From an uncultured Gemmatimonadota bacterium (GTDB lineage: Bacteria > Blakebacterota > Blakebacteria > Blakebacterales > Blakebacteraceae): 64,000 bases of DNA. Position 1 is the first letter of the stretch; each line of letters opens with the position of its first letter. A program made the translations under genes and the position numbers. The notes under the pieces were generated by a model. The model ran no database searches. It worked only from the letters and a program-made list of their open reading frames with translations, and had not been told where the DNA came from. Where the stretch lies: the NCBI GenBank assembly GCA_964576115.1, contig CAZNUA010000008.1, positions 1 to 64,000 of the forward strand. The letters are read 5' to 3'. This document shows positions 14,894 to 45,950 of this stretch, in pieces.

Positions 14894-17252
14894 ACGGGTA
14901 CGCACCCTGCGGGACGCGAGTCTGGCGGCTGAAGCCGTCCTATCCACCGAGCGGGCCGAGCTGATCACGGACTACTACTCCCGGCACGGCTGGCAGCAGC
15001 CGGCCCCCCTGCGTCGGGCCCGCGCCTTTCATCACCTCCTGACTTGTAAGGCAATCGAGATCGGACCCGGCGAACTGATCGTCGGTGAACGCGGCCCGGC
15101 ACCCAAAGCCACTCCCACCTACCCCGAGGTCTGCTGTCACACCCCCGAGGATCTCGAGATCCTCGACCGCCGCCAGAAAGTGAGTTTCCGGGTCGACGAA
15201 GCCACCCGCACCCTTTTTCTGGACCGTTTCATCCCCTTCTGGCGGGGTCGTTCGATCCGCGACCTGATCTTCGCCGAGATGGCCCCGGAATGGATCGCGG
15301 CGTATGAAGCCGGGATCTTCACCGAGTTCATGGAGCAGCGCGCCCCGGGGCACACCGTACTCGATGACAAGATCTACCGGCTGGGATTTGAAGACCTGCG
15401 ACAACAGATCGTTGCGAGCATCGCCGCCCTGGATTGGCACGCCGATCCCGAGGCGCTGGCGAAAAAAACCGAACTCGAGGCCATGGATATCGCCGCCGAG
15501 GCGCTGATCGCCTATGCCGGACGCTATGCCGACCGGGCCCGCGAACTGGCGGCGGCCGAAGAGGACGCCGGCCGCCGGTCCGAACTGGAGCGGATCGCCG
15601 AGGTCTGCGAGCGGGTTCCGGCTCAGGCGCCGCGAAATTACTGGGAGGCGATTCAGTACTACTGGTTCGTACACGTCGGGGTCACCACCGAACTCAACAC
15701 CTGGGACAGCTTCAACCCCGGCCACCTCGACCGGCACCTGCTTCCCTTCTATCGCCGCGGCCTGGCCGACGGTGAACTCACCGAAGAGCTGGCCCGCGAA
15801 CTGCTGCAGTGCCTCTGGATCAAGTTCAACAACCAGCCGGCCCCTCCGAAGGTGGGGGTGACCGCCGAGGAGTCGAACACCTACACCGATTTCGCCCAGA
15901 TCAACACCGGGGGGGTATACGCCGACGGCACCGACGCCGTGAGCGAGATGACCTTCCTCATCCTCGATGTCATCGAGGAGATGCGCCTGCTGCAGCCGTC
16001 GAGTTCGATCCAGGTCAGCAAGAAAAATCCCGATGCCTTTATCCGTCGGGCCGGACAGATCATCCGAACGGGCTTCGGTCAACCTTCGATCTTCAACGCC
16101 GACCTGATCGTGCAGGAACTGGTGCGCCAGGGCAAGAGTGTCGAAGATGCCCGCGAGGGCGGCTCGAGCGGCTGCGTCGAGGTCGGAGCCTTCGGCAAGG
16201 AGAACTATAATCTCACCGGGTACTTCAACATGCCGAAGGTGTTCGAGATCACCCTGAACAACGGCCTCGATCCCCGCACGGGTGAGCGGATCGGAATCGA
16301 AACCGGCGATCCGCGTGACTTCGCCACTTTCTCCGAACTCCTCGACGCGTACCGGCGCCAGCTCGAGCACTTCGTGGACATCAAGATCCGCGGCAACAAC
16401 GTCATAGAGCGGCTCTGGGCCCGGGAGATTCCCACTCCCTTCCTCAGCCTGCTGATCGACGACTGCATCGCGACCGGGCGCGATTATCACGACGGCGGCG
16501 CCCGCTACGACACCTCCTACATCCAGGGGGTCGGGCTGGGCACCCTGACCGACTCCGTCACAGCCGTCAAATACAACGTCTTCGACGAACGGACGCTCTC
16601 GATGGCCGAGCTGCTCGACGCTCTGGCCGACGATTTTGCCGACGAGGAGAACCTGGCGACCCGGCTGCGCGAGCGAACCCCGAAGTACGGTAACGACGAT
16701 TCCTACCCCGACCGGCTCATGCAGGAACTCTTCGAGATCTACTACGCCGCCATCGAGGATCGTCCCAACACCCGGGGAGGGCGCTATCACATCAACCTGC
16801 TGCCCACCACCTGCCATGTCTACTTCGGCGCGGTCTGCGGAGCCTCGGCCGACGGCCGCCGTTCGGGAACGCCTCTCTCGGAAGGTGTCTCGCCGGTCCA
16901 GGGCGCCGACCGCGCCGGGCCGACCGGGGTGCTGAAATCGGTGGCCAGGATGGATCATGTCCGCACCGGCGGCACCCTGCTGAACCTCAAGCTCACCCCT
17001 CATATCATGGAGGGCGAAACCGGCCTGGAGCAGTTCACCCATCTGGTACGTTCCTACTTTCGTCTGGACGGTCATCACCTGCAGTTCAACGTCGTCGACG
17101 CCTCGACCCTGCGCGCCGCCCAGGCCGAACCCGAAGCCTATCGCGATCTCATCGTGCGGGTGGCGGGATACAGCGATTACTTCTGCGATCTCGCCAAGGT
17201 TCTGCAGGACGAGATCATCGCCCGGACCGAGCATAACTCTTTCAGCGAGTGA
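14880..17252 (+). CDS. hypD: Glycyl-radical trans-4-hydroxy-L-proline dehydratase
   Basis: SGCVE Cys loop and RVAGYS Gly loop. HypD-typical segments: PTYPEVCCH, FTEFMEQRAPGHTV, NNQPAPPKVG, ESNTYTDF, LTGY, LPTTCH (compared with recalled HypD sequence). Confidence 0.88.
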   Translation: MALSERVRTLRDASLAAEAVLSTERAELITDYYSRHGWQQPAPLRRARAFHHLLTCKAIEIGPGELIVGERGPAPKATPTYPEVCCHTPEDLEILDRRQKVSFRVDEATRTLFLDRFIPFWRGRSIRDLIFAEMAPEWIAAYEAGIFTEFMEQRAPGHTVLDDKIYRLGFEDLRQQIVASIAALDWHADPEALAKKTELEAMDIAAEALIAYAGRYADRARELAAAEEDAGRRSELERIAEVCERVPAQAPRNYWEAIQYYWFVHVGVTTELNTWDSFNPGHLDRHLLPFYRRGLADGELTEELARELLQCLWIKFNNQPAPPKVGVTAEESNTYTDFAQINTGGVYADGTDAVSEMTFLILDVIEEMRLLQPSSSIQVSKKNPDAFIRRAGQIIRTGFGQPSIFNADLIVQELVRQGKSVEDAREGGSSGCVEVGAFGKENYNLTGYFNMPKVFEITLNNGLDPRTGERIGIETGDPRDFATFSELLDAYRRQLEHFVDIKIRGNNVIERLWAREIPTPFLSLLIDDCIATGRDYHDGGARYDTSYIQGVGLGTLTDSVTAVKYNVFDERTLSMAELLDALADDFADEENLATRLRERTPKYGNDDSYPDRLMQELFEIYYAAIEDRPNTRGGRYHINLLPTTCHVYFGAVCGASADGRRSGTPLSEGVSPVQGADRAGPTGVLKSVARMDHVRTGGTLLNLKLTPHIMEGETGLEQFTHLVRSYFRLDGHHLQFNVVDASTLRAAQAEPEAYRDLIVRVAGYSDYFCDLAKVLQDEIIARTEHNSFSE

Positions 17253-35061: not shown

Positions 35062-37410
35062 CTACCGCTGCCCGCCGGGGCCTGAGACGGTCCGCGCCCG
35101 GGGCAGAAGGAATTCGGCCACCTCTTCCAGACCGGCGGGAACGATCCCCATCCGCAGGGTGTCGATCCAGGCCCGGGCTTCGCGGTCGCCGGGCATGATC
35201 GTGAGCCAGCGTTCGATCACTCCCACCGCCCGCTCGAACTGCCCCGTGACGGCATAGGAATGGATCAGCGCCAAGAAGGCACGGGCACGGTAGCCCGGTA
35301 TCTGGAATTCGGCGTCGAGGACCTCTTCGAGCATCTCCTGGGCCCGCAGGGTGTCCCCGGCGGCCTGGGTCAGAATGCCGTGAAAGTACTGAAAGTCGGA
35401 ACCGGCAAAATCGACCATCTGGTCGCCGTACTCGAGCAGAGCGGCGGCCCGTTCCACCTCGCCGCGGAGCAGCAGGGCGTGGGCCGTGTTCTGGAACACC
35501 ACCCGGTAATTGTGGATCAGGGTCGAAGCGTTCTCGTCCTTGTATACCCTTTTGTCGATGATGGCCCGGTACTTGAAGACCTCACGGAGCCGGCGCTCGG
35601 TCAGGTCGACGTTGACCATTTCGGCGTCGGGCACCAGCTGCAGGGCGAAGCCCTGGATCTCGGCGTGGTGGTCGAAAAAAGCCATGTTCTCGGTCGGGAC
35701 CGTGATGGCGAAATAGACCGGGCGCCGCCCGTTGTTGGCGGCCAGGATCCAGGCCACCATCTGATCCTGGATGCGGATATAGCGCTGGCCCGGAATGCGC
35801 CACTCAAGTCCGGCCACGGTCAGGGTGGTGTCCTGCGGCATGGCCTGCAGACCGAGCTGGGCGATCTGCCTGTCTGTCAGGGAGATCGGCACCCCCAGCA
35901 CGTCCCTGAGCCAGGTGATGTACCACTGCAGATTGAGGATGCTCAGGTTGATCACGGCCACGTCGGGCCTGATGCCCTCGACCGTCTGCAGGTACCAGAG
36001 CGGGTAGGTATCGTTGTCTCCGTTGGTGAAGATGATCGCGTCCTGCTCGCACGACTGCAGGATGTTATAGCCGTAGTCCCAGGCCACCCAGTCGCCGCTG
36101 CGGTCGTGGGAGTGGAAGTTCGAGCCGAACTGGAAGCCGACCAGGGCGATCCCGATCACGAGTATGACCATGGCCGCCGAGCGGACGGCACCCGAGATGG
36201 CAGCCGGGGCCGTATCTTTATCCCGGTTGGTCAGGTAATCCCGCACCAGGGCGGCCAGACCGGCCATGCCGGTGCCGATCCAGATGGCGGTGGCGAAATA
36301 ACAGCCCACGAAGATGTAATCCCGATCCCGGGGTTGCGGATCGGGCATATTCAGGTAGACCACCAGTCCCAGACCCATGATCGTCCACAGGGCCGCATTG
36401 GCCAGGAAGGTACGCCGGTCGCGCTGGAAATTGATCACCGCCCCGAAAAGAGCGATGAAGTAGAAGGGCAGGAAGAACTCGCGGCGCAGATACCGCAGGA
36501 AGTGATAGTCGAGCTGGTAGGACCAGAAGTCGGCCTTGCGATCGAAGATCGCGAGCAGCATCGATTCCGATCCGTACTGGCGCCGCTGCAGGACCTGCAT
36601 GAAGTTCTGCCAGTTTTCCGGGTTGGTCATATCGACCGGCGGATCGAGCCCGCTCCGGATATAGATCAGGGCGTAGATCGTAAATCCGAGTCCGGCCAGA
36701 AGAACCGCCCAGACCCAGATATCGACCCGCTTGAGCACCGGCCGGTCGAAGTACCAGAGCAGAATCAGGATGGTGGGGATGGTGAGCAGGGCCAGCAGGT
36801 GGTTGGCGGCCCCGACCCCGAAGAGATACCCGATCAGCAGCAACAGGGGCGCCCGCCGGCTGTCGAGCCCGCCGCGCAGGTGGCGGAAAACGAGCCAGAT
36901 GCAGAGCGCGGTGACCATTATCGATAGGCTGTAGACCTCGGCCTCGACGGCGTTGAACCAGGCCGAATGGCTGAAGGCGTACGCCAGGGCGCCGGTCCCG
37001 GCCGCAACCGCCTGGACCAGCGGCGAGTAGACCTCGTTCTCTTCCTTCACCGCCCCGGAATGCAGCACACCCTTTTCGGTCGTCTGTCCCCCGCTTCCCC
37101 AGAGCCGGACGATCTCGAGAATGATGGCGTACAGCAGCACGGCGGTGACGGTCGAGGTCACGACCGAAATGAAATTCACCTCGGCGGCGACGTTGACGGG
37201 GGTGGGAATCAGGGTAAAGAGCCGGCCCAGCAGAACGAAGGTCGGGGCGGCGGGCGGATGGGTGATACCGAGCGACCAGGCCGCCGCAATGAACTCGCCC
37301 GCATCCCAGAAAGCCACCGTCGGGGCGATAGTGATGAAGTAGACGAAAAACGAAGCCAGTCCGACGATCCAGGCCCCGATGGTGCGTGGATCACGCGAGC
37401 TCTTCTCCAT
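35062..37410 (-). CDS. DUF2723/TMEM260-like polytopic membrane glycosyltransferase with C-terminal TPR-like region
   Basis: APTVAFWDAGEF, HPP, AVEAEVY, R.QYG, PRDRDY, FTNGDNDTYPLWY. Confidence 0.85.
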   Translation of the reverse strand: MEKSSRDPRTIGAWIVGLASFFVYFITIAPTVAFWDAGEFIAAAWSLGITHPPAAPTFVLLGRLFTLIPTPVNVAAEVNFISVVTSTVTAVLLYAIILEIVRLWGSGGQTTEKGVLHSGAVKEENEVYSPLVQAVAAGTGALAYAFSHSAWFNAVEAEVYSLSIMVTALCIWLVFRHLRGGLDSRRAPLLLLIGYLFGVGAANHLLALLTIPTILILLWYFDRPVLKRVDIWVWAVLLAGLGFTIYALIYIRSGLDPPVDMTNPENWQNFMQVLQRRQYGSESMLLAIFDRKADFWSYQLDYHFLRYLRREFFLPFYFIALFGAVINFQRDRRTFLANAALWTIMGLGLVVYLNMPDPQPRDRDYIFVGCYFATAIWIGTGMAGLAALVRDYLTNRDKDTAPAAISGAVRSAAMVILVIGIALVGFQFGSNFHSHDRSGDWVAWDYGYNILQSCEQDAIIFTNGDNDTYPLWYLQTVEGIRPDVAVINLSILNLQWYITWLRDVLGVPISLTDRQIAQLGLQAMPQDTTLTVAGLEWRIPGQRYIRIQDQMVAWILAANNGRRPVYFAITVPTENMAFFDHHAEIQGFALQLVPDAEMVNVDLTERRLREVFKYRAIIDKRVYKDENASTLIHNYRVVFQNTAHALLLRGEVERAAALLEYGDQMVDFAGSDFQYFHGILTQAAGDTLRAQEMLEEVLDAEFQIPGYRARAFLALIHSYAVTGQFERAVGVIERWLTIMPGDREARAWIDTLRMGIVPAGLEEVAEFLLPRARTVSGPGGQR

Positions 37411-37685
37411 GAAGATGCATACCCTCCTGAGACGGGGAACGAGAAGGTGCCTGCATGCTATATGTCCGGGTTGGACCGGGCAAGCCCCGGCGTATCCGGG
37501 CAGACGGTCCGATTCTGATTCAAGACTCCCGAAACTCCGGCCGGTTCGCCGCCGTCATCACAAATAATCCACAGGTTGACATGGCGCCGGAGGTGTAGTA
37601 TCGAGCCGACTTATGATGTACGAGGAAGCGGGGCGGTTCGTCCGGCCCGACTCCGCTGAAGATGCCTCGTTCCGGGGAGAGTGCA

Positions 37686-39011
37686 ATGGATCAGACGTTC
37701 GGCTTCGCCTGCTGGGACTGCGGACACGCCATGGATTGGGACGGACATAGCCCCAAGGAGGCCTGCCCGGCCTGCGGCGGGAACGTCCTGACCGTCACCT
37801 ACCCGGGGCTGACCGCCGACCGGCTGCGTCGCATCATCGAAGACGATACGGGCGTCGAAGGACTCTGGCGCTACTTCGAGGTACTGCCCCTGCAGGATCG
37901 GGCCAACATCGTCTCGCGCGGCGAAGGGGCGGTGCCGATCGAACGGTGGTCTTTCCTGGAAGAATTCGCCCGCTCGACCGTCGGGCTCGAGGTGATGGTA
38001 TGGGTGCACCGCCACGACTCGAACCCCGGCACCGGCAGTTTCAAGGATCTGGCCGGCAGCCTGGTCTCGAGCGCCATGAAGGAACGCGGGGTCGGCGAGT
38101 ACGTGGTCTCGAGTACGGGGAATACGGCCACGGCCTATTCCTGCTACCTGGCCGCAGCCGGATGCACCCTGTATGCCTTCATCCCCCGTTTCGCTCCGCC
38201 CTTCAAGGTGGCCGACATCGCCGCCTTCGGACAGCATGTCTATCAGATCGACGGCGACTACCCCACCGCCCGGGCGTTCGCCGGCTCCTTTGCAACCGAA
38301 CACGGTCTGGCCATGGCGGGGGGCACCTTCGACCCCTTCCGGATCGAGGCCAAGCGGACCATGGCCTTCGAGTGGTACCGGCACTGCGAGGTCTTCCCGA
38401 CGGTGTACATTCAGGCGCTGAGCGGGGGCACCGGTCCGCTCGGAACCGACCGGGGAGCCCGCGAGCTGCGCGCCTACGGCCTGATCGAAGAGGTGCCGCG
38501 TCTGCTGCTCTGTCAGACGAGCCGCTGCGCGCCCATGGCCAGTTCGTGGCGCAAGGCCCGGGAGGCAGGCTTCCCCGAGGGCTGGCATGAAACCTTCGAC
38601 ACCATCGACGATCCCGAGACCGAGGTGCCCACTCTGGCCGAGGGGCATCCCGCCGCTTACCCGCGCCTGGCGGCTCTGGTCAGGGATTCGGGGGGCGAGA
38701 TCTTCGACTTCCCCGAGGAACTCACCCCGGCCGTGGGCCGCCTGATCGCCTACGAGACCGGAATCCGCATCGGCAGCGCCGGGGCGGTAAGCCTGGGTGG
38801 TTTCTTCGCCGCCCTGCGGGGTGGCTGGCTGCGCGAAGGCGACAGCATTCTGCTGACCACCGGCGAAGGGATCCAGCGCGATCCCGATTTCCTGCCCAAG
38901 ATGTCCGGAGCCGTCCGGCACGCCGACGCTCCGGAAAACGTCTCGCGGCAGGATCGGATATCTCTGCGCGAGGAAATCTATGATCCCCTGCGCACCTATA
39001 CCCGAGGCTGA
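37686..39011 (+). CDS. Threonine-synthase-fold PLP enzyme with N-terminal Zn ribbon; candidate cysteate synthase
   Basis: CWDC..CPAC; LWRY..LP; GEG; NPGTGSFKD (PLP Lys); SSTGNTA; YIQALSGGTG; LTTGEG. Confidence 0.8.
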   Translation: MDQTFGFACWDCGHAMDWDGHSPKEACPACGGNVLTVTYPGLTADRLRRIIEDDTGVEGLWRYFEVLPLQDRANIVSRGEGAVPIERWSFLEEFARSTVGLEVMVWVHRHDSNPGTGSFKDLAGSLVSSAMKERGVGEYVVSSTGNTATAYSCYLAAAGCTLYAFIPRFAPPFKVADIAAFGQHVYQIDGDYPTARAFAGSFATEHGLAMAGGTFDPFRIEAKRTMAFEWYRHCEVFPTVYIQALSGGTGPLGTDRGARELRAYGLIEEVPRLLLCQTSRCAPMASSWRKAREAGFPEGWHETFDTIDDPETEVPTLAEGHPAAYPRLAALVRDSGGEIFDFPEELTPAVGRLIAYETGIRIGSAGAVSLGGFFAALRGGWLREGDSILLTTGEGIQRDPDFLPKMSGAVRHADAPENVSRQDRISLREEIYDPLRTYTRG

Positions 39012-39053
39012 ATGACCGTGTAATTCGGACCGAGAGTCCGGGAGACCCCTGTC

Positions 39054-40670
39054 ATGCCCATACCAAAAGACGAACTGGCCCGCGCCAACCGGGAACTGAA
39101 TGACGCCGATGTCTTCACGATCCTGCGCTGGGCCGACGGGACCTTCCCCAACGACGTCGCCATCACCACCGCTTTCGGGTACAGCGGGCTGGTCCTGCTC
39201 CACCACGCCATCCAGATCATGCCCGACATGCCGGTCTACTTCATCGACACCGGCTGGCACTTCCCCGAAACCCTGGAGTTCTGCGAGCGGCTGCGCTCCG
39301 AATGGGATCTGAAACTGGAGATCATCACCCCGGCCAAGCCGAAGTCCGAACTGATCTCCGAACTCGGTCCCGAACCGTACACGTCGAACCCCGACCTCTG
39401 CTGCCATCACTGCAAGGTCGAGCCCCTGCTCCACTTCGTGCACAACTCCACCGCCTGGCTTTCGGGCATCAGGCGCGACCAGAGCAAGACGCGGGCGGGC
39501 ATCGATATCGTCGAGGTCGACGGCCGCGGCGTGGTCAAGGTCTCTCCCATGGCCAACTGGACCCGGGAGCAGACCTGGGAGTACATCCACCAGCACGAAC
39601 TGCCCTATCATCCGCTGCACGACCAGGGCTACCCCAGCATCGGCTGTCAACCCTGCACCCTGCCGGTCACCGCCGGCGGCGACGAGCGCGACGGCCGCTG
39701 GCCCTTCATGCAGAAGATGGAATGCGGCATCCACCTGGTCGAAGAAGAGGTCGTGACCGGTCCGCGGCCCCGCATCCTGGTCGCTTCGGCCATCGCTGAT
39801 GACGCCGTCTCGCGTCTGCGCGAACGGTTCGACGTGGATGTGATCCCGACCTCCGACGAAGACGAACTGCTGGCCAAGATCCCCGACTACGACGGTCTCA
39901 TCGTGCGCAGCAAACCCAAGGTATCGAAACGGGTCATGGCGGCGGGCGGCAAGCTGAAGGTCGTGGGCCGCGCCGGCGTGGGTCTGGACAACATCGATCT
40001 CGAAGCCGCCGAAAAGCAGGGCATCGCGGTCGTCAACTCGCCGGCGGCCTCGACCGCCTCGGCCGCCGAACTCGTCTTCGCCCACATCCTGGCCTTCACC
40101 CGCCGGGTCACCCAGGCCGATGCCTCGCTCAAGAGCAACCAGTGGATCAAGAGCCGTCTGAGCGGTTTCGAAATGGTCGGCAAGACGATCGGCATCGTCG
40201 GCTGCGGCCGGATCGGCGGGCACGTGGCCAAGATCGCCCGGGGCTTCGGCATGCGGGTGCTGGCTCACGACGTGGAGCAGAACAACGACCTGGTCCGGGA
40301 CTTCGCGGTCGAGTACACCGACCTGGTGAATCTGCTCCGCCGCTCCGACATCGTCAGCCTGCACGTGCCCATGTTGGCCGAAACGCGGCACCTGATCTCG
40401 ACCGAGGAGTTCAAGTTGATGAAGAGCTCGGCGATTCTGGTCAACGTGGCCCGCGGCGGAGTGGTGGACGAGAAGGCCCTCTACGACGCCCTCGTGACCG
40501 ACGAGATCGCCGGCGCCTGCCTCGACGTCTTCGAGACCGAGCCGCCCTTCGACAATCCCCTGCTCACCCTCGAGAACGTGCTCGTCACCCCCCATCTGGG
40601 GGCCAGCACCGCCGAGGCGCAGAAGAAGGCGGGAATGATCGTGGCCGAGGCTATGATGCGGATTCTCTGA
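39054..40670 (+). CDS. Fusion: [4Fe-4S] APS/PAPS reductase (CysH) + D-3-phosphoglycerate dehydrogenase-like (SerA) domain
   Basis: N-half: TAFG, FIDTG.HF.ET, CC..K, G.RRDQ..R, YPSIGCQPCT, ER.GRW, ECGIH. C-half: LIVRS, GRAGVGLDNID, GCGRIG, NVARG, LDVFETEP, TPHLGAST. One continuous frame. Confidence 0.9.
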   Translation: MPIPKDELARANRELNDADVFTILRWADGTFPNDVAITTAFGYSGLVLLHHAIQIMPDMPVYFIDTGWHFPETLEFCERLRSEWDLKLEIITPAKPKSELISELGPEPYTSNPDLCCHHCKVEPLLHFVHNSTAWLSGIRRDQSKTRAGIDIVEVDGRGVVKVSPMANWTREQTWEYIHQHELPYHPLHDQGYPSIGCQPCTLPVTAGGDERDGRWPFMQKMECGIHLVEEEVVTGPRPRILVASAIADDAVSRLRERFDVDVIPTSDEDELLAKIPDYDGLIVRSKPKVSKRVMAAGGKLKVVGRAGVGLDNIDLEAAEKQGIAVVNSPAASTASAAELVFAHILAFTRRVTQADASLKSNQWIKSRLSGFEMVGKTIGIVGCGRIGGHVAKIARGFGMRVLAHDVEQNNDLVRDFAVEYTDLVNLLRRSDIVSLHVPMLAETRHLISTEEFKLMKSSAILVNVARGGVVDEKALYDALVTDEIAGACLDVFETEPPFDNPLLTLENVLVTPHLGASTAEAQKKAGMIVAEAMMRIL

Positions 40671-41562
40671 GCCGGACGGTACAGCAGACTTCGGTCCCCC
40701 CCGCCCGATACTCGATGGCATCGAAGCTGACCATATTGGCCATGGCGATACCCCGGCCGTGATTGTCGGTCACCCGATCGGGATCGAGCTGCATATAGGG
40801 AGCCGGATCGAACCCCTCGCCCTCGTCACGGATGATCAGGCGCAGTTCGGTAGCGGTCCGCTCGTAACTGACGCGGACCGTGCGGTCGGCATGATCGGAA
40901 TCGTGCAGGAGTGACTCGATTTCTTCCCGCCATCTTCCCTGCCGGGTCAGCTCGGTCTTGCGCTCGTATCCGATTCCCAGATTGCCGTGTTCCACGGCGT
41001 TGACGAGCAGTTCCGAAAGCCCCAGAACCACATTGTCGGGCTCGGGGTAGAAGGCGGCGATGAACACCGCCAGATCCTGCGCCTGTTCGAGGGTGCGGAA
41101 CTCGAAGGTGGCGCCTGAAACCAGACCGAGCATCTGCCGGTTCCGGTCGACCTCGGTCCTGAGCATCGACTGATAGCGATAATCCCGAACGGCGGTCTCG
41201 ACGATCGAGAGCAGAATATCCACATGGAAGGGTTTGGTAATGTAGTAATAGGCGCCGGCGTCGATCCCCTCGACGATCTCGTGGCGGGCCCTGGCGGCCG
41301 TTTCCATGATGACCGGTATGCGTTGTTTGGCCGGATCGTCCTTGATTCGCCGCAGCAGTTCCAGACCGTCCAGACGGGGCATCCGGCGGTCGAGGAGAAC
41401 GGCGTCGATGACGCTGTCGTGCTCGTCGAGCAGTTCCCAGCCCGCCATCCCGTCTCGGGCCAGGAGGACCTCGTAGTTGTTCTTCGTCAGGGCGGTTTCG
41501 AGCAGTTTCAGAATAACGGGATCGTCATCAACGGCCAGAACGGTGCCGTTGTACTCGGGCAT
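40651..41562 (-). CDS. Response-regulator receiver + HATPase_c (RsbW/SpoIIAB-like Ser kinase) protein
   Basis: VDDD, LDRRMP, KPF; ELLVNAVEHGN, DEGEGFD, HGRG. Confidence 0.88.
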   Translation of the reverse strand: MPEYNGTVLAVDDDPVILKLLETALTKNNYEVLLARDGMAGWELLDEHDSVIDAVLLDRRMPRLDGLELLRRIKDDPAKQRIPVIMETAARARHEIVEGIDAGAYYYITKPFHVDILLSIVETAVRDYRYQSMLRTEVDRNRQMLGLVSGATFEFRTLEQAQDLAVFIAAFYPEPDNVVLGLSELLVNAVEHGNLGIGYERKTELTRQGRWREEIESLLHDSDHADRTVRVSYERTATELRLIIRDEGEGFDPAPYMQLDPDRVTDNHGRGIAMANMVSFDAIEYRAGGTEVCCTVRLRESAS

Positions 41563-42718
41563 GGTCGGTCTCCTTGCGTCGAGACGTCCACTCACGACCG
41601 TACACCAGATCGTCGCACAGACGGGCGATATGACGCAGCCATGGATTCAGCTTGATGATCGCCCGCACCAGATTGTGGAACCAGGTATCGCGGTGCGAGA
41701 AGGGACAGATCGCCATGCAGATTCCGCAGTCGGTTCCCACCTGTCTCCAGTAGGCATAGCACCGCTCGACCGCAGTCGTCCACTTCTCAACCCCGCGGTC
41801 CACCGGCCGGGCTCCGGTCTCGAGAGCGTGGGCGGGGCAGTTTTCGGCGCACTTGCGGCAGATCCGGCAGAAATGGTCCACCCCCAGGTGAACCGGCCGG
41901 TCGTAGCGGACCGGCAGATCGGTCGTCACCGCCCCGAGGCGAACCCGGCTGCCGTACCGGTCGGCGATGAGAATATTGTTCCGGCCGACTTCACCCAGAC
42001 CGGCAGCTGCAGCCAGCGGCGGCAGGATCAGATCCCAGTGGGCGTCGTAGTGGGCCTTCGCCTGCCAGCCTGACTGTTGCAGGGCCGCCGCCACGGTCCG
42101 GGCGATGACCGCCCCCCGCCGATACTGCCGGGCCGATTCCCGGACCACCTCGGCCTGCGGCGCGCGCCTCATGGCTTTGAACTCCATTTCGAGCAGAAAG
42201 AGAATCACGGCGGGATGATCGAGGTCGATCGGCGTACCGTATTCGTCGTCGAAACGCCCCTTGTGGGTGTAGACCCAGGCCTTTCGCAGCGGGGTGCATC
42301 CCACCGCCACGGCCCCCAGACCGGTGATGATCGACCGGACGGTCCGGTCGGGATCGCCGCCGGCGCACAGCTCCGCCGTCAGACGGTCCACCTGGTCCCG
42401 ATCGGGTTCGAACGTCTCGATGGCCTCGAAATGCCGCTCGGCCTCCGCACTCAGGACAGGATCGTAGTGGGTCGCCCCCGGTTTCAGGAACGGCGTCATG
42501 GCCCGGATGCGGTCATCGGTCGCCTTCCACTCAGGCCGGCGGGCGTAAAAATCGTCGTAGGCGGGTGTCCCCCCCGAGCGGTTGATCCGGCTGAACATCA
42601 CCTCGCGTTCGTCGACCCGTTCATCCGGCTCGGCCGGCCCCCGGCGCCGGCGCAGCGGATCGAGAGGGAAGAAAAGGCAGACGAGTGCGCCTGCGGTGAC
42701 GATCAGAACAGTTGACAT
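41528..42718 (-). CDS. Reductive-dehalogenase/QueG-like cobalamin Fe-S protein with N-terminal membrane anchor
   Basis: AAAGLGEVGR, YGSRVRL..VTTDLP, FCRICRKCAENCP, CYAYW...DCGICMAICPF; GGAGG RBS before ATG 42718. Confidence 0.82.
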   Translation of the reverse strand: MSTVLIVTAGALVCLFFPLDPLRRRRGPAEPDERVDEREVMFSRINRSGGTPAYDDFYARRPEWKATDDRIRAMTPFLKPGATHYDPVLSAEAERHFEAIETFEPDRDQVDRLTAELCAGGDPDRTVRSIITGLGAVAVGCTPLRKAWVYTHKGRFDDEYGTPIDLDHPAVILFLLEMEFKAMRRAPQAEVVRESARQYRRGAVIARTVAAALQQSGWQAKAHYDAHWDLILPPLAAAAGLGEVGRNNILIADRYGSRVRLGAVTTDLPVRYDRPVHLGVDHFCRICRKCAENCPAHALETGARPVDRGVEKWTTAVERCYAYWRQVGTDCGICMAICPFSHRDTWFHNLVRAIIKLNPWLRHIARLCDDLVYGREWTSRRKETDHARVQRHRSGR

Positions 42719-42892
42719 GGCCTCCAATCTGCCTCCGGCTTCCGGTCGTGGCCAGTCCGGATTCCGGCCCGCCCCCGGATCCTGCAGCCGCAGGAGGATG
42801 CAGGCGGTGTTATTCTCCTGCCTCGGCACCCCGGCATGGGGTATCATGAACCGGTGCGTCCGAGGTGCAACCCGCAGCGGGAGAGAGGGACT

Positions 42893-44419
42893 GTGGCACG
42901 GAGCGGAGCAGAGAAGTCGGTCATCGTCATCGGAGCCGGTCCGGGGGGGCTGACAGCGGCCATGATCCTGGCCCACCGCGGCTTCCGGGTGACCGTACTG
43001 GAAAAGCGCGACCGGGTCGGGGGCCGCAACGGCGAGTTACGGGTCGGCGAGTACAGTCACGACATCGGCCCGACCTTCCTGATGATGAAGTTCCTGCTCG
43101 ACAGCATTTTCGAGATCACCGGCCGCCGGGTTGAGGATTACATGGAGTTCCGGCTTCTCGATCCGATGTACGAACTCGTCCACGACGGCTACTCGTTTTT
43201 CCCCACTTCCGATCGGGAGAAGATGCGGGCCGAAGTGGCACGGGTTTTCCCCGGCCAGGAAGCGGGCTATGAGACCTTCATGAAGCGCGAGCAGGTCCGC
43301 TTCAACCGTATGTACCCCTGCCTGCAGAAGCACTACTCGACCCTGGGCTCCTATCTCGATCCGGTCCTGGTGCGGGCCATGCCGCACCTGGCGTTCACCA
43401 AATCGCTCTACGGCGTGCTCTCGCGCTACTTCGGCCCCGAGGCAATGCGGATCAGCTTCACCTTTCAATCGAAATATCTCGGCATGTCGCCCTGGTCGTG
43501 CCCGGGGGCTTTCGCGATCATCCCCTTCATCGAGCACGGCTACGGGATCTGGCACGTGCAGGGCGGGCTCTGCCGCATATCCGACGGCATGGCCCGGGTC
43601 GTCGAAGAAGAGGGGGGCGAGATCCGTCTCGAGACCCCGGTCAGGAAAATCATCACCGAGGGCCGGTCGGCCCGCGGGGTCGAACTGACCGACGGCACCC
43701 GGCTCGAAGCCGACGATGTGATCATCAACGCCGATTTCGCTCACGCCATGACGCACCTGACCGAACCGGGCCAGGTACGCAAGTACACTCCCGCCGACCT
43801 CGACCGCCGGGAGTACTCCTGCTCGACCTACATGCTCTACCTGGGTCTGGACACCCTGTACGAGATGCCCCACCACACCATCGTCTTCGCGTCCGATTAC
43901 GAGCGGAACCTCGATGAGATCGCCAACCGTAAAGTGCTCTCCGAGGATTTCAGCTTCTACGTGCGCAACGCGTCGGTCACCGATCCGCATATCGCCCCGG
44001 CCGGTCACAGCTCGGTCTATATCCTGGTGCCGGTGCCCAACAACCAGAGCACAATCGACTGGGACTCTGAAGCCGGTCCCTTCCGCGAGCGGGTACTCTC
44101 AGCCATCGAGAAGCGCACCGCCATGACCGATCTGCGCCGGCACATCGTCTCCGAAGAGGTCATCCACCCCGGCACCTGGGAAAGCGAGCGGGATGTTTAC
44201 TGCGGGGCAACCTTCAACCTGGCGCACAGCCTGAACCAGATGCTCTACCTGCGGCCGCGCAACCGCTTCGAGGAATGGGATCACTGCTATCTGGTTGGAG
44301 GAGGCACCCACCCCGGGAGCGGTCTGCCGACGATCTACGAATCGGGCCGCATCTCGGCCGACATGCTCTCGAAGCGTTACGGTTATCCGGTCGATCCGCC
44401 GCTCCCCCTGCCGGAGTGA
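42893..44419 (+). CDS. Phytoene desaturase family (CrtI/CrtN-like) FAD oxidoreductase
   Basis: VIGAGPGGL, LEK..VGGR, DIGPT, GG...I, NAD, YLVGGGTHPGSGLP. Confidence 0.9.
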   Translation: MARSGAEKSVIVIGAGPGGLTAAMILAHRGFRVTVLEKRDRVGGRNGELRVGEYSHDIGPTFLMMKFLLDSIFEITGRRVEDYMEFRLLDPMYELVHDGYSFFPTSDREKMRAEVARVFPGQEAGYETFMKREQVRFNRMYPCLQKHYSTLGSYLDPVLVRAMPHLAFTKSLYGVLSRYFGPEAMRISFTFQSKYLGMSPWSCPGAFAIIPFIEHGYGIWHVQGGLCRISDGMARVVEEEGGEIRLETPVRKIITEGRSARGVELTDGTRLEADDVIINADFAHAMTHLTEPGQVRKYTPADLDRREYSCSTYMLYLGLDTLYEMPHHTIVFASDYERNLDEIANRKVLSEDFSFYVRNASVTDPHIAPAGHSSVYILVPVPNNQSTIDWDSEAGPFRERVLSAIEKRTAMTDLRRHIVSEEVIHPGTWESERDVYCGATFNLAHSLNQMLYLRPRNRFEEWDHCYLVGGGTHPGSGLPTIYESGRISADMLSKRYGYPVDPPLPLPE

Positions 44420-44472: not shown

Positions 44473-45798
44473 TCACTGCCCCCGGTGATCGCGGTGGAAA
44501 GCTTCCAGGCGGTGTCGCAGTTCGGGTACCTGTTCCAGTGAGGTGAGCGAAACGCAGGCCCGGATCCCCTCTCCGACATGGCTCCCGGTGGTGTTCAGAC
44601 CGATGGCGCTGATGCCGTAATAGATCAGTTCCTCGACCAGTCCGGCGCAGTCGAAACCGGGATAGGTAACGGTGAAATAAAAGCCGTCGGCCAGCGGTTC
44701 GCCCAGATCGTTGTCGTACACCAGGCTGAAGCCGTTCTCGAGGAAAGCGGCTTTCATGGCCTCGGCCCGGCGGGCGTACTCGCGCACCGGTTCGGTGAAG
44801 CGGAAGTCCCCCTCGACGGCCGCCCGCAGGATCGCCGCCAGGCCGTACTGCGGACCTTCCGGCACGCCGGCGGTGGTGGGGTAGATCCCGCCGGCAACGA
44901 AGGCGTAGCCGGGACTCGAGGTGCCGAAGTAGCGGGCCAGATTCTCCGATTCCTCGTCGAAGAGCGCCGGGCTGACAACCGCCAGGGCGACCCGCTGTCC
45001 GGCATAGGAAAAGATCTTCGAGGAGGAGATCAGCAGAACGTACTGATCGGTGTAGCGGGCCACCGTGGGCTGATAGGGCGGCTCGAAAGGCACGCCGTAC
45101 TCGGCCCGGAAATCCATACCGAAGTAGGCCAGGTCCTCGATGGCCAGAACACCGTACTCGCTGCAGAGCCGACCGATCCCCTCGAGTTCCGATTCCTTGA
45201 AACAGACCCAGGAGGGGTTGTTGGGATTGCTGTAGAGCAAACCGCCGACCCGCCCGGTGGCGAAGTGCTTTTCAACTGCCGCCACCAGGTCGTCACCCCG
45301 GCAGGAATGCACGTCGATCGAGTCGTTCTCGAGTCCCCACACCCGGCACTGCAGTTTGTTGACCGGGAAACCCGGATCGAGAAAAAGAATGGTGTCGCGG
45401 CCGGGCAGCCGCCGTCCGGCGATACCCATGCTGATGAAACCGCCGTGCATGGCCCCGACGGTCGGGATACAGCACTCCGCCGGCAGATCGAGATCAAGGA
45501 AGGCCCGGACGAAATTTCGGCCGGCCTCTTTGAGAACCGGCACCCCGTCGAAGGGAGCATAGACCCGGGCCAGTCCCCGCTCGCGCAGGGCCTCGATCTC
45601 GGCCTCGATGGCGATCGGATTCGGTTCCAGACCGGGCACACCGAGTTCCATCCGGATGAAGGACAGGCCGGTGCTCTCCTCGATGGCGCTGATGATCCGG
45701 TTCACTTCACGGATCGACGCGTTACCGACCGCAATGCCGTGCTCGGCGATGATGCCGTCGACGACTGTCCGCTCGAGAGGAACGGGCTGGAAGGACAT
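44473..45798 (-). CDS. PLP-dependent aminotransferase class I/II
   Basis: RMELGVPG, YSNPNNP, EDLAY, SSSKIFSYAGQR, GIRAC. Confidence 0.88.
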   Translation of the reverse strand: MSFQPVPLERTVVDGIIAEHGIAVGNASIREVNRIISAIEESTGLSFIRMELGVPGLEPNPIAIEAEIEALRERGLARVYAPFDGVPVLKEAGRNFVRAFLDLDLPAECCIPTVGAMHGGFISMGIAGRRLPGRDTILFLDPGFPVNKLQCRVWGLENDSIDVHSCRGDDLVAAVEKHFATGRVGGLLYSNPNNPSWVCFKESELEGIGRLCSEYGVLAIEDLAYFGMDFRAEYGVPFEPPYQPTVARYTDQYVLLISSSKIFSYAGQRVALAVVSPALFDEESENLARYFGTSSPGYAFVAGGIYPTTAGVPEGPQYGLAAILRAAVEGDFRFTEPVREYARRAEAMKAAFLENGFSLVYDNDLGEPLADGFYFTVTYPGFDCAGLVEELIYYGISAIGLNTTGSHVGEGIRACVSLTSLEQVPELRHRLEAFHRDHRGQ

Positions 45799-45950
45799 GG
45801 GGCAGCCTCCGTGGTGCGAGCCGGGAACGCAGAAGCGGGGCAGGCGACGGGCGCCGGGGCGCAGATGCGCCGGAGCGCCTCCGGCAATGTAATACGGGCT
45901 CACCGTCAGCGGCAATTCCCCTTCCCGGTTCTCTCCCCTATTATGCAGGC

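Follow-up and report, generated by a model that had tools for sequence, protein, structure and literature searches.

A candidate cysteate module in an uncultured Gemmatimonadota bacterium: a divergent threonine synthase paralogue beside a rare APS reductase–phosphoglycerate dehydrogenase fusion

Introduction

What does an enzyme with the threonine synthase (ThrC) fold make when the next gene joins an adenosine 5'-phosphosulfate (APS) reductase to a D-3-phosphoglycerate dehydrogenase (PGDH)? The question is raised by a two-gene cassette on contig CAZNUA010000008.1 of an uncultured Gemmatimonadota bacterium (assembly GCA_964576115.1), of which positions 1 to 64,000, here called the window, were analysed. 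Gene 1 of the cassette encodes the ThrC-fold enzyme, which depends on pyridoxal 5'-phosphate (PLP), and gene 2 encodes the fusion of an N-terminal CysH (APS reductase) domain with a C-terminal PGDH domain. A preliminary description of this DNA had proposed gene 1 as a candidate cysteate synthase and gene 2 as a possible source of both of its substrates, sulfite and phosphoserine.

Cysteate is the entry to sulfonolipids, to coenzyme M in some archaea and to several sulfonate osmolytes. To our knowledge, only two enzyme types make it from phosphoserine and sulfite: the archaeal type, reportedly represented by the Methanosarcina cysteate synthase of Graham et al. (2009), and the CBS/CysK-like enzyme CapA from the capnine pathway, which is said to have been described by Liu et al. 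in Biochemistry in 2022. Based on the sequence comparisons presented below, we consider it moderately probable that gene 1 is a cysteate synthase of a third type, and that the cassette is a cysteate module in which gene 2 supplies its substrates.

A separate clade among threonine-synthase-like enzymes

PALP was the sole Pfam family matched by gene 1 (135.8 bits). Among its 18 NCBIfam matches at E ≤ 0.001, threonine synthase models were at the top, each under its cut-off; PRK08197 gave 149.9 bits (cut-off 303) and TIGR00260 50.5 bits (cut-off 167.1). The cysteate synthase model TIGR03844 (cysteate_syn) gave 101.3 bits (cut-off 324.9), and the CapA model NF053679 (cut-off 600) was not among the 18. 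A tree of 50 rows was calculated for 23 gene 1 family sequences (alignment A1), 19 ThrC-type sequences and 8 TIGR03844-type sequences from genomes of the Bacteroidales order; it omits two TIGR03844-type loci in which BLASTP matched no open reading frame (ORF) and eleven ThrC loci, including the long ThrC of the lineage itself, that were not reached from gene 1 by BLASTP at 1e-3. The gene 1 family, ThrC and the TIGR03844 type each fell on one side of a branch, with support of 99, 96 and 100, respectively, in the Shimodaira–Hasegawa-like approximate likelihood ratio test (SH-aLRT). The eight TIGR03844-type members, which score 442–494 bits, thus form a clade of their own; all 23 sequences of the gene 1 family lie outside it, separated from it by a very long branch. 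On score and tree, gene 1 was rejected both as a member of TIGR03844 and as a ThrC; as CapA it was rejected on score. CapA, which is like gene 1 in its proposed reaction and in its proposed role upstream of a cysteate acyltransferase, belongs to another branch of the fold-type II enzymes. The gene 1 family is a distinct clade outside both known cysteate synthase families, and gene 1 is not of the Methanosarcina type, which the preliminary description had cited as a precedent.

Seven PALP-family genes were found in the genome to which the window belongs: gene 1, thrC, two dehydratase-like genes and one gene each of CysK/CysM-like, CuyA/D-cysteine-desulfhydrase-like and TrpB-like type. The canonical thrC lies at C29:21470-22537 (TIGR00260, 221.2 bits, above the cut-off), so gene 1 is not the sole thrC, a possibility that the preliminary description had raised; as a ThrC paralogue, it exists alongside the housekeeping gene. 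The CysK/CysM-like gene on contig C1 scored 328.4 bits against cysKM and 182.5 bits against the CapA model, and the best match of TIGR03844 in the genome was gene 1 itself (101.2 bits). Since the other six PALP-family genes are otherwise assigned, gene 1 is the sole candidate cysteate synthase of this genome.

The motifs of gene 1 were compared with both neighbouring families. In an alignment with the eight TIGR03844-type members, its GSFKD and SSTGN were ThrC-like and its QALSGGTGP was cysteate-synthase-like. Against the 19 aligned ThrC rows, gene 1 was without the ThrC motifs FKDR and GNxGN and had FKDL and SGGTG instead, while its family as a whole retains the ThrC-like FKD (with its lysine), STGN and DPxRxEAK (with its arginine), Leu replacing Arg after FKD. 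The preliminary description had quoted SFKDL and a QALSGGTG loop and had spoken of a Zn ribbon, read here as CWDC and CPAC; these features are all present. It had also placed the loop nearer to cysteate synthases; this holds, as QALSGGTGP is nearer to the QAVGSGTGA of the TIGR03844 type than to the vPvGNxGN of ThrC. The TIGR03844/CapA2 type (PDB 9k3c/9k3o) shares with gene 1 the PLP fold of the ThrC superfamily, a length of ~430–440 aa, an xGTG-type PLP-phosphate loop and the same proposed reaction, but it has CSFKE/FKE and ASAGN/SAGN where gene 1 has FKD and STGN, and gene 1 differs from it in having an N-terminal four-cysteine motif. The four cysteines of that motif in gene 1 (C9, C12, C27 and C30) are conserved at 90% or more in the 23 family members.

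The AlphaFold model of gene 1 had a predicted local distance difference test (pLDDT) score of 92.5. With this model, Foldseek returned ThrC structures on top (E 1.3e-21, template modelling (TM) score 0.87 by target), and ThrC (PDB 2d1f, 1v7c, 2zsj and 6nmx) was the best match of gene 1 in both fold and sequence. An Atlas look-up, which serves as a lead only, listed clusters named 'Threonine synthase family protein' first and an automatically named 'putative cysteate synthase' third (score 0.95).

A rare fusion of APS reductase and phosphoglycerate dehydrogenase

That gene 2 joins CysH to a PGDH, as the preliminary description had read it, was borne out for both halves. The CysH half passed the cut-offs of NF002537, phosphoadenylyl-sulfate reductase (234.5 bits, cut-off 154), and of TIGR00434 (207.6 bits, cut-off 165.1), in both cases over aa 5-230, and Pfam placed PAPS_reduct at aa 35-204 (162.3 bits). 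It shares with these CysH families and with PDB 7lhr the CC..C, CxxC and ECGIH motifs; we take CCHHC and CQPC to be the Fe-S signature of APS-type reductases and ECGIH to be the catalytic cysteine motif. Unlike assimilatory CysH, it is fused to a dehydrogenase, in a genome in which neither an ATP sulfurylase nor a sulfite reductase was found.

The dehydrogenase half was matched in Pfam by 2-Hacid_dh_C and 2-Hacid_dh (aa 241-537), and its best solved matches were PGDHs, led by the short PGDH of Pyrococcus horikoshii (PDB 1wwk, 282 bits, aa 238-538), followed by 1ygy/3ddn (249 bits) and 9jcm (246 bits), ahead of the glyoxylate reductase 6bii (227 bits). Like the short type III enzyme 1wwk, it is without regulatory domains; here it is joined to the C-terminal side of a CysH domain. 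It scored 356.6 bits against the PGDH model TIGR01327 (cut-off 454), a shortfall that follows from the absence of the ASB/ACT half, since only model positions 1-301 of 525 were matched, and 277.2 bits against the glyoxylate reductase model PRK13243. Among the matches listed, its nearest relatives were archaeal-type proteins of ~300 aa, 50–60% identical and mostly named 'hydroxyacid dehydrogenase'.

An assembly artefact was ruled out as the origin of the fusion by two other loci. A separate metagenome contig (L103) agreed with the window over 8950 bases without a single mismatch, gene 2 included, and a contig of a related organism (L104) kept the order TMEM260-like gene, gene 1, gene 2, with gene 1 72% and gene 2 77% identical; the gene 2 homologue of the latter (P0384, L104:5594-7207) has the same in-frame CysH-PGDH junction. 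In a search of 5.8 billion proteins, P0384 was the one further full-length fusion within the best 120 matches, the rest of which covered at most 59% of the query. Among the best 150 of 1.84 billion representative sequences, no match to both halves was found, which is weak evidence because only a fragment or a single-domain protein stands for the cluster of the window's own protein in that set. The CysH-PGDH fusion is genuine but very rare.

Insertion of the cassette into the lineage

In three family-level relatives (L340, L341 and L342 in genomes G002, G003 and G005), the TMEM260-like gene that flanks gene 1 stands directly beside a homologue of the Fe-S gene at 41528-42976 of the window. Because these relatives join the two genes directly, the segment between them in the window is an insertion; the corresponding loci of G001 and G004 were uninformative. 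Nine relatives at the genus, family or order level contained neither a gene of the gene 1 type nor a match to the CysH half. The cassette was thus inserted into this lineage. Beyond L104, the next nearest relative of gene 1 comes from the Thermoguttaceae (54% identical); it is followed by a cysH that stands alone and shares 63% identity with the CysH half of gene 2. This arrangement hints that the gene 1-cysH pair came first and that a dehydrogenase related most closely to archaeal-type PGDHs of ~300 aa was acquired later.

Gene neighbourhoods and sulfur metabolism of the carriers

We collected loci of gene 1 relatives, 80 from species genomes and 80 from metagenomes, of which 146 were distinct after duplicates and the window's own copy had been removed. 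Many of the contigs were short, and the following counts are lower bounds. A cysH gene was located within 5 kb at 56 of the 146 loci and within 300 bp on the same strand at 49; cysD was within 5 kb at 10, in cysH-cysD-cysN-gene 1 operons. Genes with 55% identity or more to the acyltransferase of locus L056 were adjacent at 12 loci and within 5 kb at 19, and 74 of the 146 had at least one of the cysH, cysD and acyltransferase neighbours. The L056 acyltransferase itself scored 627.7 bits against SulA (PDB 7u7h) and 585.2 bits against 'cysteate-C-fatty acyltransferase' (CFAT; 28eh), and at locus L153 an acyltransferase, cysH and a gene of the gene 1 type follow one another in this order. Of the linkage anticipated in the preliminary description, the part concerning cysH, cysDN and cysteate acyltransferase-like genes was recovered and the part concerning serA was not, a SerA-like neighbour being present at a single locus (1/146). 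According to the record titles, carriers belong to the Aminicenantes, Acidobacteriota, Thermoguttaceae, Nitrospirae, Bacteroidales and others, and the named records are all metagenome-assembled genomes; no cultured sulfonolipid producer was among the 120 matches listed for the gene 1 homologue of locus L078, which is recorded under the flavobacterial family Ichthyobacteriaceae.

The preliminary description had noted the lack of a sulfite reductase in the window, and this lack extends to the whole genome (93.66% complete), in which a search for NIR_SIR found none. Five other genomes that carry cysH beside a gene of the gene 1 type (two Aminicenantes and one each of Acidobacteriota, Thermoguttaceae and Neomarinimicrobiota) likewise had no NIR_SIR (0/5), and none had CysD above the cut-off (0/5), while all five had a Sat-type ATP sulfurylase (PF01747). 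In a control set of well-known genomes, NIR_SIR was detected in 11 of 14. Sulfate activation and APS or 3'-phospho-APS (PAPS) reduction without sulfite reduction fit an enzyme that consumes sulfite directly.

The genome of the window also carries, on contig C9, a class-V aminotransferase gene (BhcA/AGXT-like, 210 bits; C9:13725-14954, L338:1226-2455) adjacent to a gene for a short PGDH-like dehydrogenase (15001-15999, L338:2502-3500; TIGR01327, 278.4 bits). This pair probably serves ordinary serine synthesis, as a phosphoserine or hydroxypyruvate pair, and since it is present the fused dehydrogenase of gene 2 is an extra copy.

Acyltransferases and the distribution of the known synthases

In the Bacteroidota capnine/sulfonolipid pathway, as far as it is laid out in the accessible parts of PMC9304779, PMC11211663 and PMC13692747, a cysteate synthase is followed by SulA/CapB/CFAT and then by a ketoreductase. 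The genome of the window resembles this pathway in having a cysteate-forming candidate and a CFAT-like condensing enzyme, and related loci show operons of the same logic; it differs in that its two genes are on different contigs and that the synthase is of another clade. The condensing enzyme is an alpha-oxoamine synthase encoded at C80:7354-8604, which scored 424.4 bits against 28eh, 395.1 bits against 7u7h and 261.2 bits against serine palmitoyltransferase (Spt; 3a2b). At 12 of 13 sites where CFAT differ from Spt 3A2B, a comparison that draws on the accessible parts of PMC13692747 and PMC9304779, it was CFAT-like (N112, Y115, G117, C141, E187, G191, F245, A249, A279, K280, L282 and P283), and at one it was Spt-like (S82). 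Three genes upstream of it on the same strand (L088:4318-6596) code for a regulator of the TetR family, an NAD(P)-binding protein resembling NmrA and a methyltransferase of PEMT/ICMT-like type; the second of these could provide the ketoreductase of a lipid pathway.

The compared sites include SulA Lys281, a published CFAT/Spt discriminator in the accessible parts of the same two papers. We read the equivalent position in 80 genomes of one order, where 6 sequences fell outside the pattern, and Lys was found in all of the 74 readable homologues, 43 of which were from genomes without a candidate cysteate synthase. Since it is present in all 74 whatever the synthase class, the residue was uninformative as a discriminator of cysteate and serine types, and its discriminating power within that order is doubtful.

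Five genomes with an acyltransferase beside a gene of the gene 1 type contained no gene that reached the TIGR03844 cut-off (0/5) or the CapA cut-off (0/5). Among 101 genomes of the Bacteroidales order to which G041 belongs, the TIGR03844 type occurred in 13 and the gene 1 type in 23, without overlap among the 36 carriers; this lack of co-occurrence gave a hypergeometric P of 0.027, a significance inflated by the relatedness of the genomes, which are not independent. CapA was above its cut-off in 0 of the 101. Close acyltransferase-like genes were present in 22 of the 23 genomes with the gene 1 type and in all 13 with the TIGR03844 type.

Interpretation and alternatives

If the cassette acts as proposed, the APS reductase half of gene 2, which is of the Fe-S type, would release sulfite; its unregulated short PGDH half would push 3-phosphoglycerate into the phosphoserine pathway, which an aminotransferase encoded elsewhere would complete; and gene 1 would swap the phosphate of O-phospho-L-serine for sulfite, yielding L-cysteate. 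The presence of fused substrate-supply enzymes beside gene 1 is an argument for the substrates of gene 1, and the fusion is the most explicit genomic hint to both of them. We hold a wider version only tentatively, as a possibility: the cassette might be a self-sufficient, horizontally acquired cysteate module that combines an independently evolved, ThrC-derived synthase with a 'Rosetta-stone' fusion, possibly as a channelling complex, and that leads to sulfonolipids outside the Bacteroidota, and many uncultured anaerobes (Aminicenantes, Acidobacteriota, Thermoguttaceae and Bacteroidales) that take sulfate as far as sulfite and lack sulfite reductase might use up their sulfite mainly through this clade.

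Several observations weigh against a cysteate synthase. In the Foldseek search in which ThrC came first, 9k3c (CapA2 of Alistipes finegoldii) ranked 22nd, and the profile of the 23 members of A1 gave 129 bits to ThrC 2zsj and 68.6 bits to cysteate synthase 9k3c; by these profile scores and ranks, gene 1 is closer to true ThrC than to the solved cysteate synthase. The genome of the window, at the completeness given above, yielded no PF01747, no CysD/CysN by tblastn and no PAPS_reduct member besides gene 2; with no ATP sulfurylase found, the APS reductase half is without a visible source of substrate. The L104 fusion has DSGIL at the position of the catalytic ECGIH, with the CC..C and CxxC cysteines kept, and its reductase half may be an inactive pseudo-enzyme. 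The acyltransferase link is also less specific than it appears, since a close SulA/CFAT-like gene (59% identity or more) that has the Lys also occurs in 45 of the 65 genomes of the Bacteroidales order with neither ThrC-type synthase; either the members of this acyltransferase family are not all specific for cysteate, or additional sources of cysteate exist. Outside the Bacteroidota, an acyltransferase at 48% identity or more was found in only 3 of 10 genomes with the gene 1 type, so that cysteate, if made, would often have another fate. Finally, ThrC paralogues that pass the ThrC cut-off (~410–420 aa, 292–307 bits) lie 4–5 kb from cysH-like genes in three genomes (G016:C42, G019:C28 and G023:C26); none of them matched A1 at E ≤ 1e-40.

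Two alternatives leave gene 1 a sulfur-incorporating enzyme and change what it makes. It might use sulfite with another carbon skeleton, for example turning O-phosphohomoserine into homocysteate, or form some other sulfonated amino acid. This would suit the retained ThrC-like FKD, STGN and DPxRxEAK, the best structural match to ThrC, whose substrate is O-phosphohomoserine, and the lack of a close cysteate acyltransferase in 7 of the 10 non-Bacteroidota carriers, but we consider it unlikely given that the loop is of the cysteate-synthase type, that the fused partner is an enzyme of the phosphoserine and not of the homoserine pathway, and that cysteate-acyltransferase-like genes stand next to the gene 1 type at 12 of the 146 loci and no further than 5 kb from it at 19. 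An unusual cysteine pathway, in which gene 1 would join O-phosphoserine with sulfide, thiosulfate or a protein persulfide, appears improbable as well: no sulfide-making sulfite reductase was found in the genome itself or in any of the five other carriers, the gene on C1 already provides a CysK/CysM-like enzyme, and the adjacency of cysteate acyltransferases would go unexplained, although the linkage to cysH and cysDN and a CysK-like GTG loop are what such a pathway would predict.

The other two alternatives concern the partner gene and the family name. The dehydrogenase half of gene 2 might interconvert sulfopyruvate and sulfolactate, or act on another 2-oxo acid, and so lead from cysteate to sulfolactate-type products, as the preliminary description had allowed; this touches gene 2 only and is compatible with gene 1 as a cysteate synthase. 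The score under the PGDH equivalog cut-off, the PRK13243 match, the 'hydroxyacid dehydrogenase' names of the nearest relatives and an aminotransferase gene at 44473-45915, 4 kb away from the cassette, speak for it, yet the missing ASB/ACT half explains the shortfall and all of the best solved matches are PGDHs (1wwk and 1ygy/3ddn ahead of 6bii), and we give this alternative little credence. It is very unlikely that gene 1 is no more than another threonine synthase, divergent in sequence and brought near cysH by a general organisation of amino-acid operons. Its ThrC fold and motifs and the paralogues near cysH-like genes in the three genomes named above would agree with this explanation; against it stand the canonical thrC, the scores of gene 1 under all ThrC cut-offs, the loss of the GNxGN loop and of the Arg after FKD, and the absence of gene 1 from nine genus-to-order relatives together with its insertion alongside the fusion.

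As for the reading of gene 1 as a third-type cysteate synthase, the reaction of O-phosphoserine with sulfite to cysteate is already attributed to CapA in the accessible part of PMC13692747, and both this reaction and the pathway that follows it are already described in what is accessible of PMC13692747, PMC11211663 and PMC9304779; the enzyme clade and the CysH-PGDH fusion would be new. We found no literature description of either, in a search whose coverage mostly excluded subscription journals and also excluded supplements, including the list of validated synthases of PMC11525784. If the reading is right, a third type of synthase is widespread in uncultured anaerobes, the capacity for sulfonates and sulfonolipids has to be judged differently from genomic and metagenomic data, the gene 1 clade escapes surveys based on validated enzymes alone, and genomes with ATP sulfurylase and APS reductase yet without sulfite reductase find an explanation.

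Layout of the locus and minor observations

The features of the locus are collected in Table 1. The ORF listing agrees with the two-gene unit, the 42-nt gap and the opposite-strand flanking genes of the preliminary description. The open frame of gene 1 spans 37662-39011 (+), with an additional ATG at 37662 upstream of the start used here. A scan of the spacer for promoters and terminators (39012-39053) gave no promoter-like site and no convincing terminator.

Table 1. Positions of the cassette, its domains and motifs, and the flanking genes in the window
Feature	Position	Strand	Basis
Gene 1, ThrC-fold PLP enzyme, 441 aa	37686..39011	+	ORF listing; start 37686 is the form present in databases
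Four-cysteine zinc-ribbon-like N-terminal motif, CWDC aa 9-12 and CPAC aa 27-30	37710..37775	+	Motif read
SFKD motif with PLP-binding lysine K120, then Leu (aa 118-122), Arg in ThrC	38037..38048	+	Alignments
QALSGGTGP loop, aa 243-251, position of the PLP-phosphate loop	38412..38438	+	Alignments
Spacer between gene 1 and gene 2, 42 nt	39012..39053	+	ORF listing
Gene 2, APS reductase::short phosphoglycerate dehydrogenase fusion, 538 aa	39054..40670	+	ORF; Pfam, NCBIfam and PDB matches
CysH domain, aa 1-227	39054..39734	+	Pfam, NCBIfam, PDB 7lhr 146.1 bits
CCHHC, aa 116-120	39399-39413	+	Motif read
CQPC, aa 198-201	39645-39656	+	Motif read
ECGIH, aa 223-227	39720-39734	+	Motif read
12-residue linker LVEEEVVTGPRP	39735..39770	+	ORF translation
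Short (type III-like) D-3-phosphoglycerate dehydrogenase domain, no ASB/ACT regulatory domains	39771..40667	+	NCBIfam, PDB
GCGRIG	40200-40217	+	Dehydrogenase domain motif
PHLGAST	40590-40610	+	Dehydrogenase domain motif
Inserted segment: gene 1, gene 2 and response-regulator/HATPase_c_2 gene, ~4.1 kb	37411..41527	.	Empty site in three family relatives
TMEM260-like glycosyltransferase gene	35062-37410	-	Pfam; flanks the gene 1 side
Response-regulator receiver and RsbW-like HATPase_c_2 gene	40651-41595	-	Pfam; flanks the gene 2 side

The receiver-domain gene on the opposite strand shares 20 nt with the 3' end of gene 2. In the Atlas, a cluster of PALP enzymes with a fused receiver domain (568 aa, Chloroflexota) was found to be structurally similar to gene 1.

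Conserved gene strings were observed around the gene 1 type in two groups of loci. In Bacteroidales-type loci (L032, L037, L041, L042, L045, L047, L049 and others), the string consists of a DUF4301 gene, a TPR protein gene, the gene 1 type, a gene for a VCA0040-like (undecaprenyl-phosphate translocase-like) protein and one for a protein with a shikimate dehydrogenase N-terminal domain, and it includes no sulfur gene. In Aminicenantes/Acidobacteriota-type loci (L011, L012, L014, L016, L017 and L024), two metallopeptidase genes of the TldD/PmbA family precede cysH and the gene 1 type. In addition, the gene of the D-cysteate sulfo-lyase (CuyA)-like/D-cysteine desulfhydrase family on contig C15 (G000:C15:53711-54772, L186; 357.4 bits, cut-off 450) stands beside a class-V aminotransferase gene (C15:54827-55795) and is a possible cysteate-degrading counterpart.

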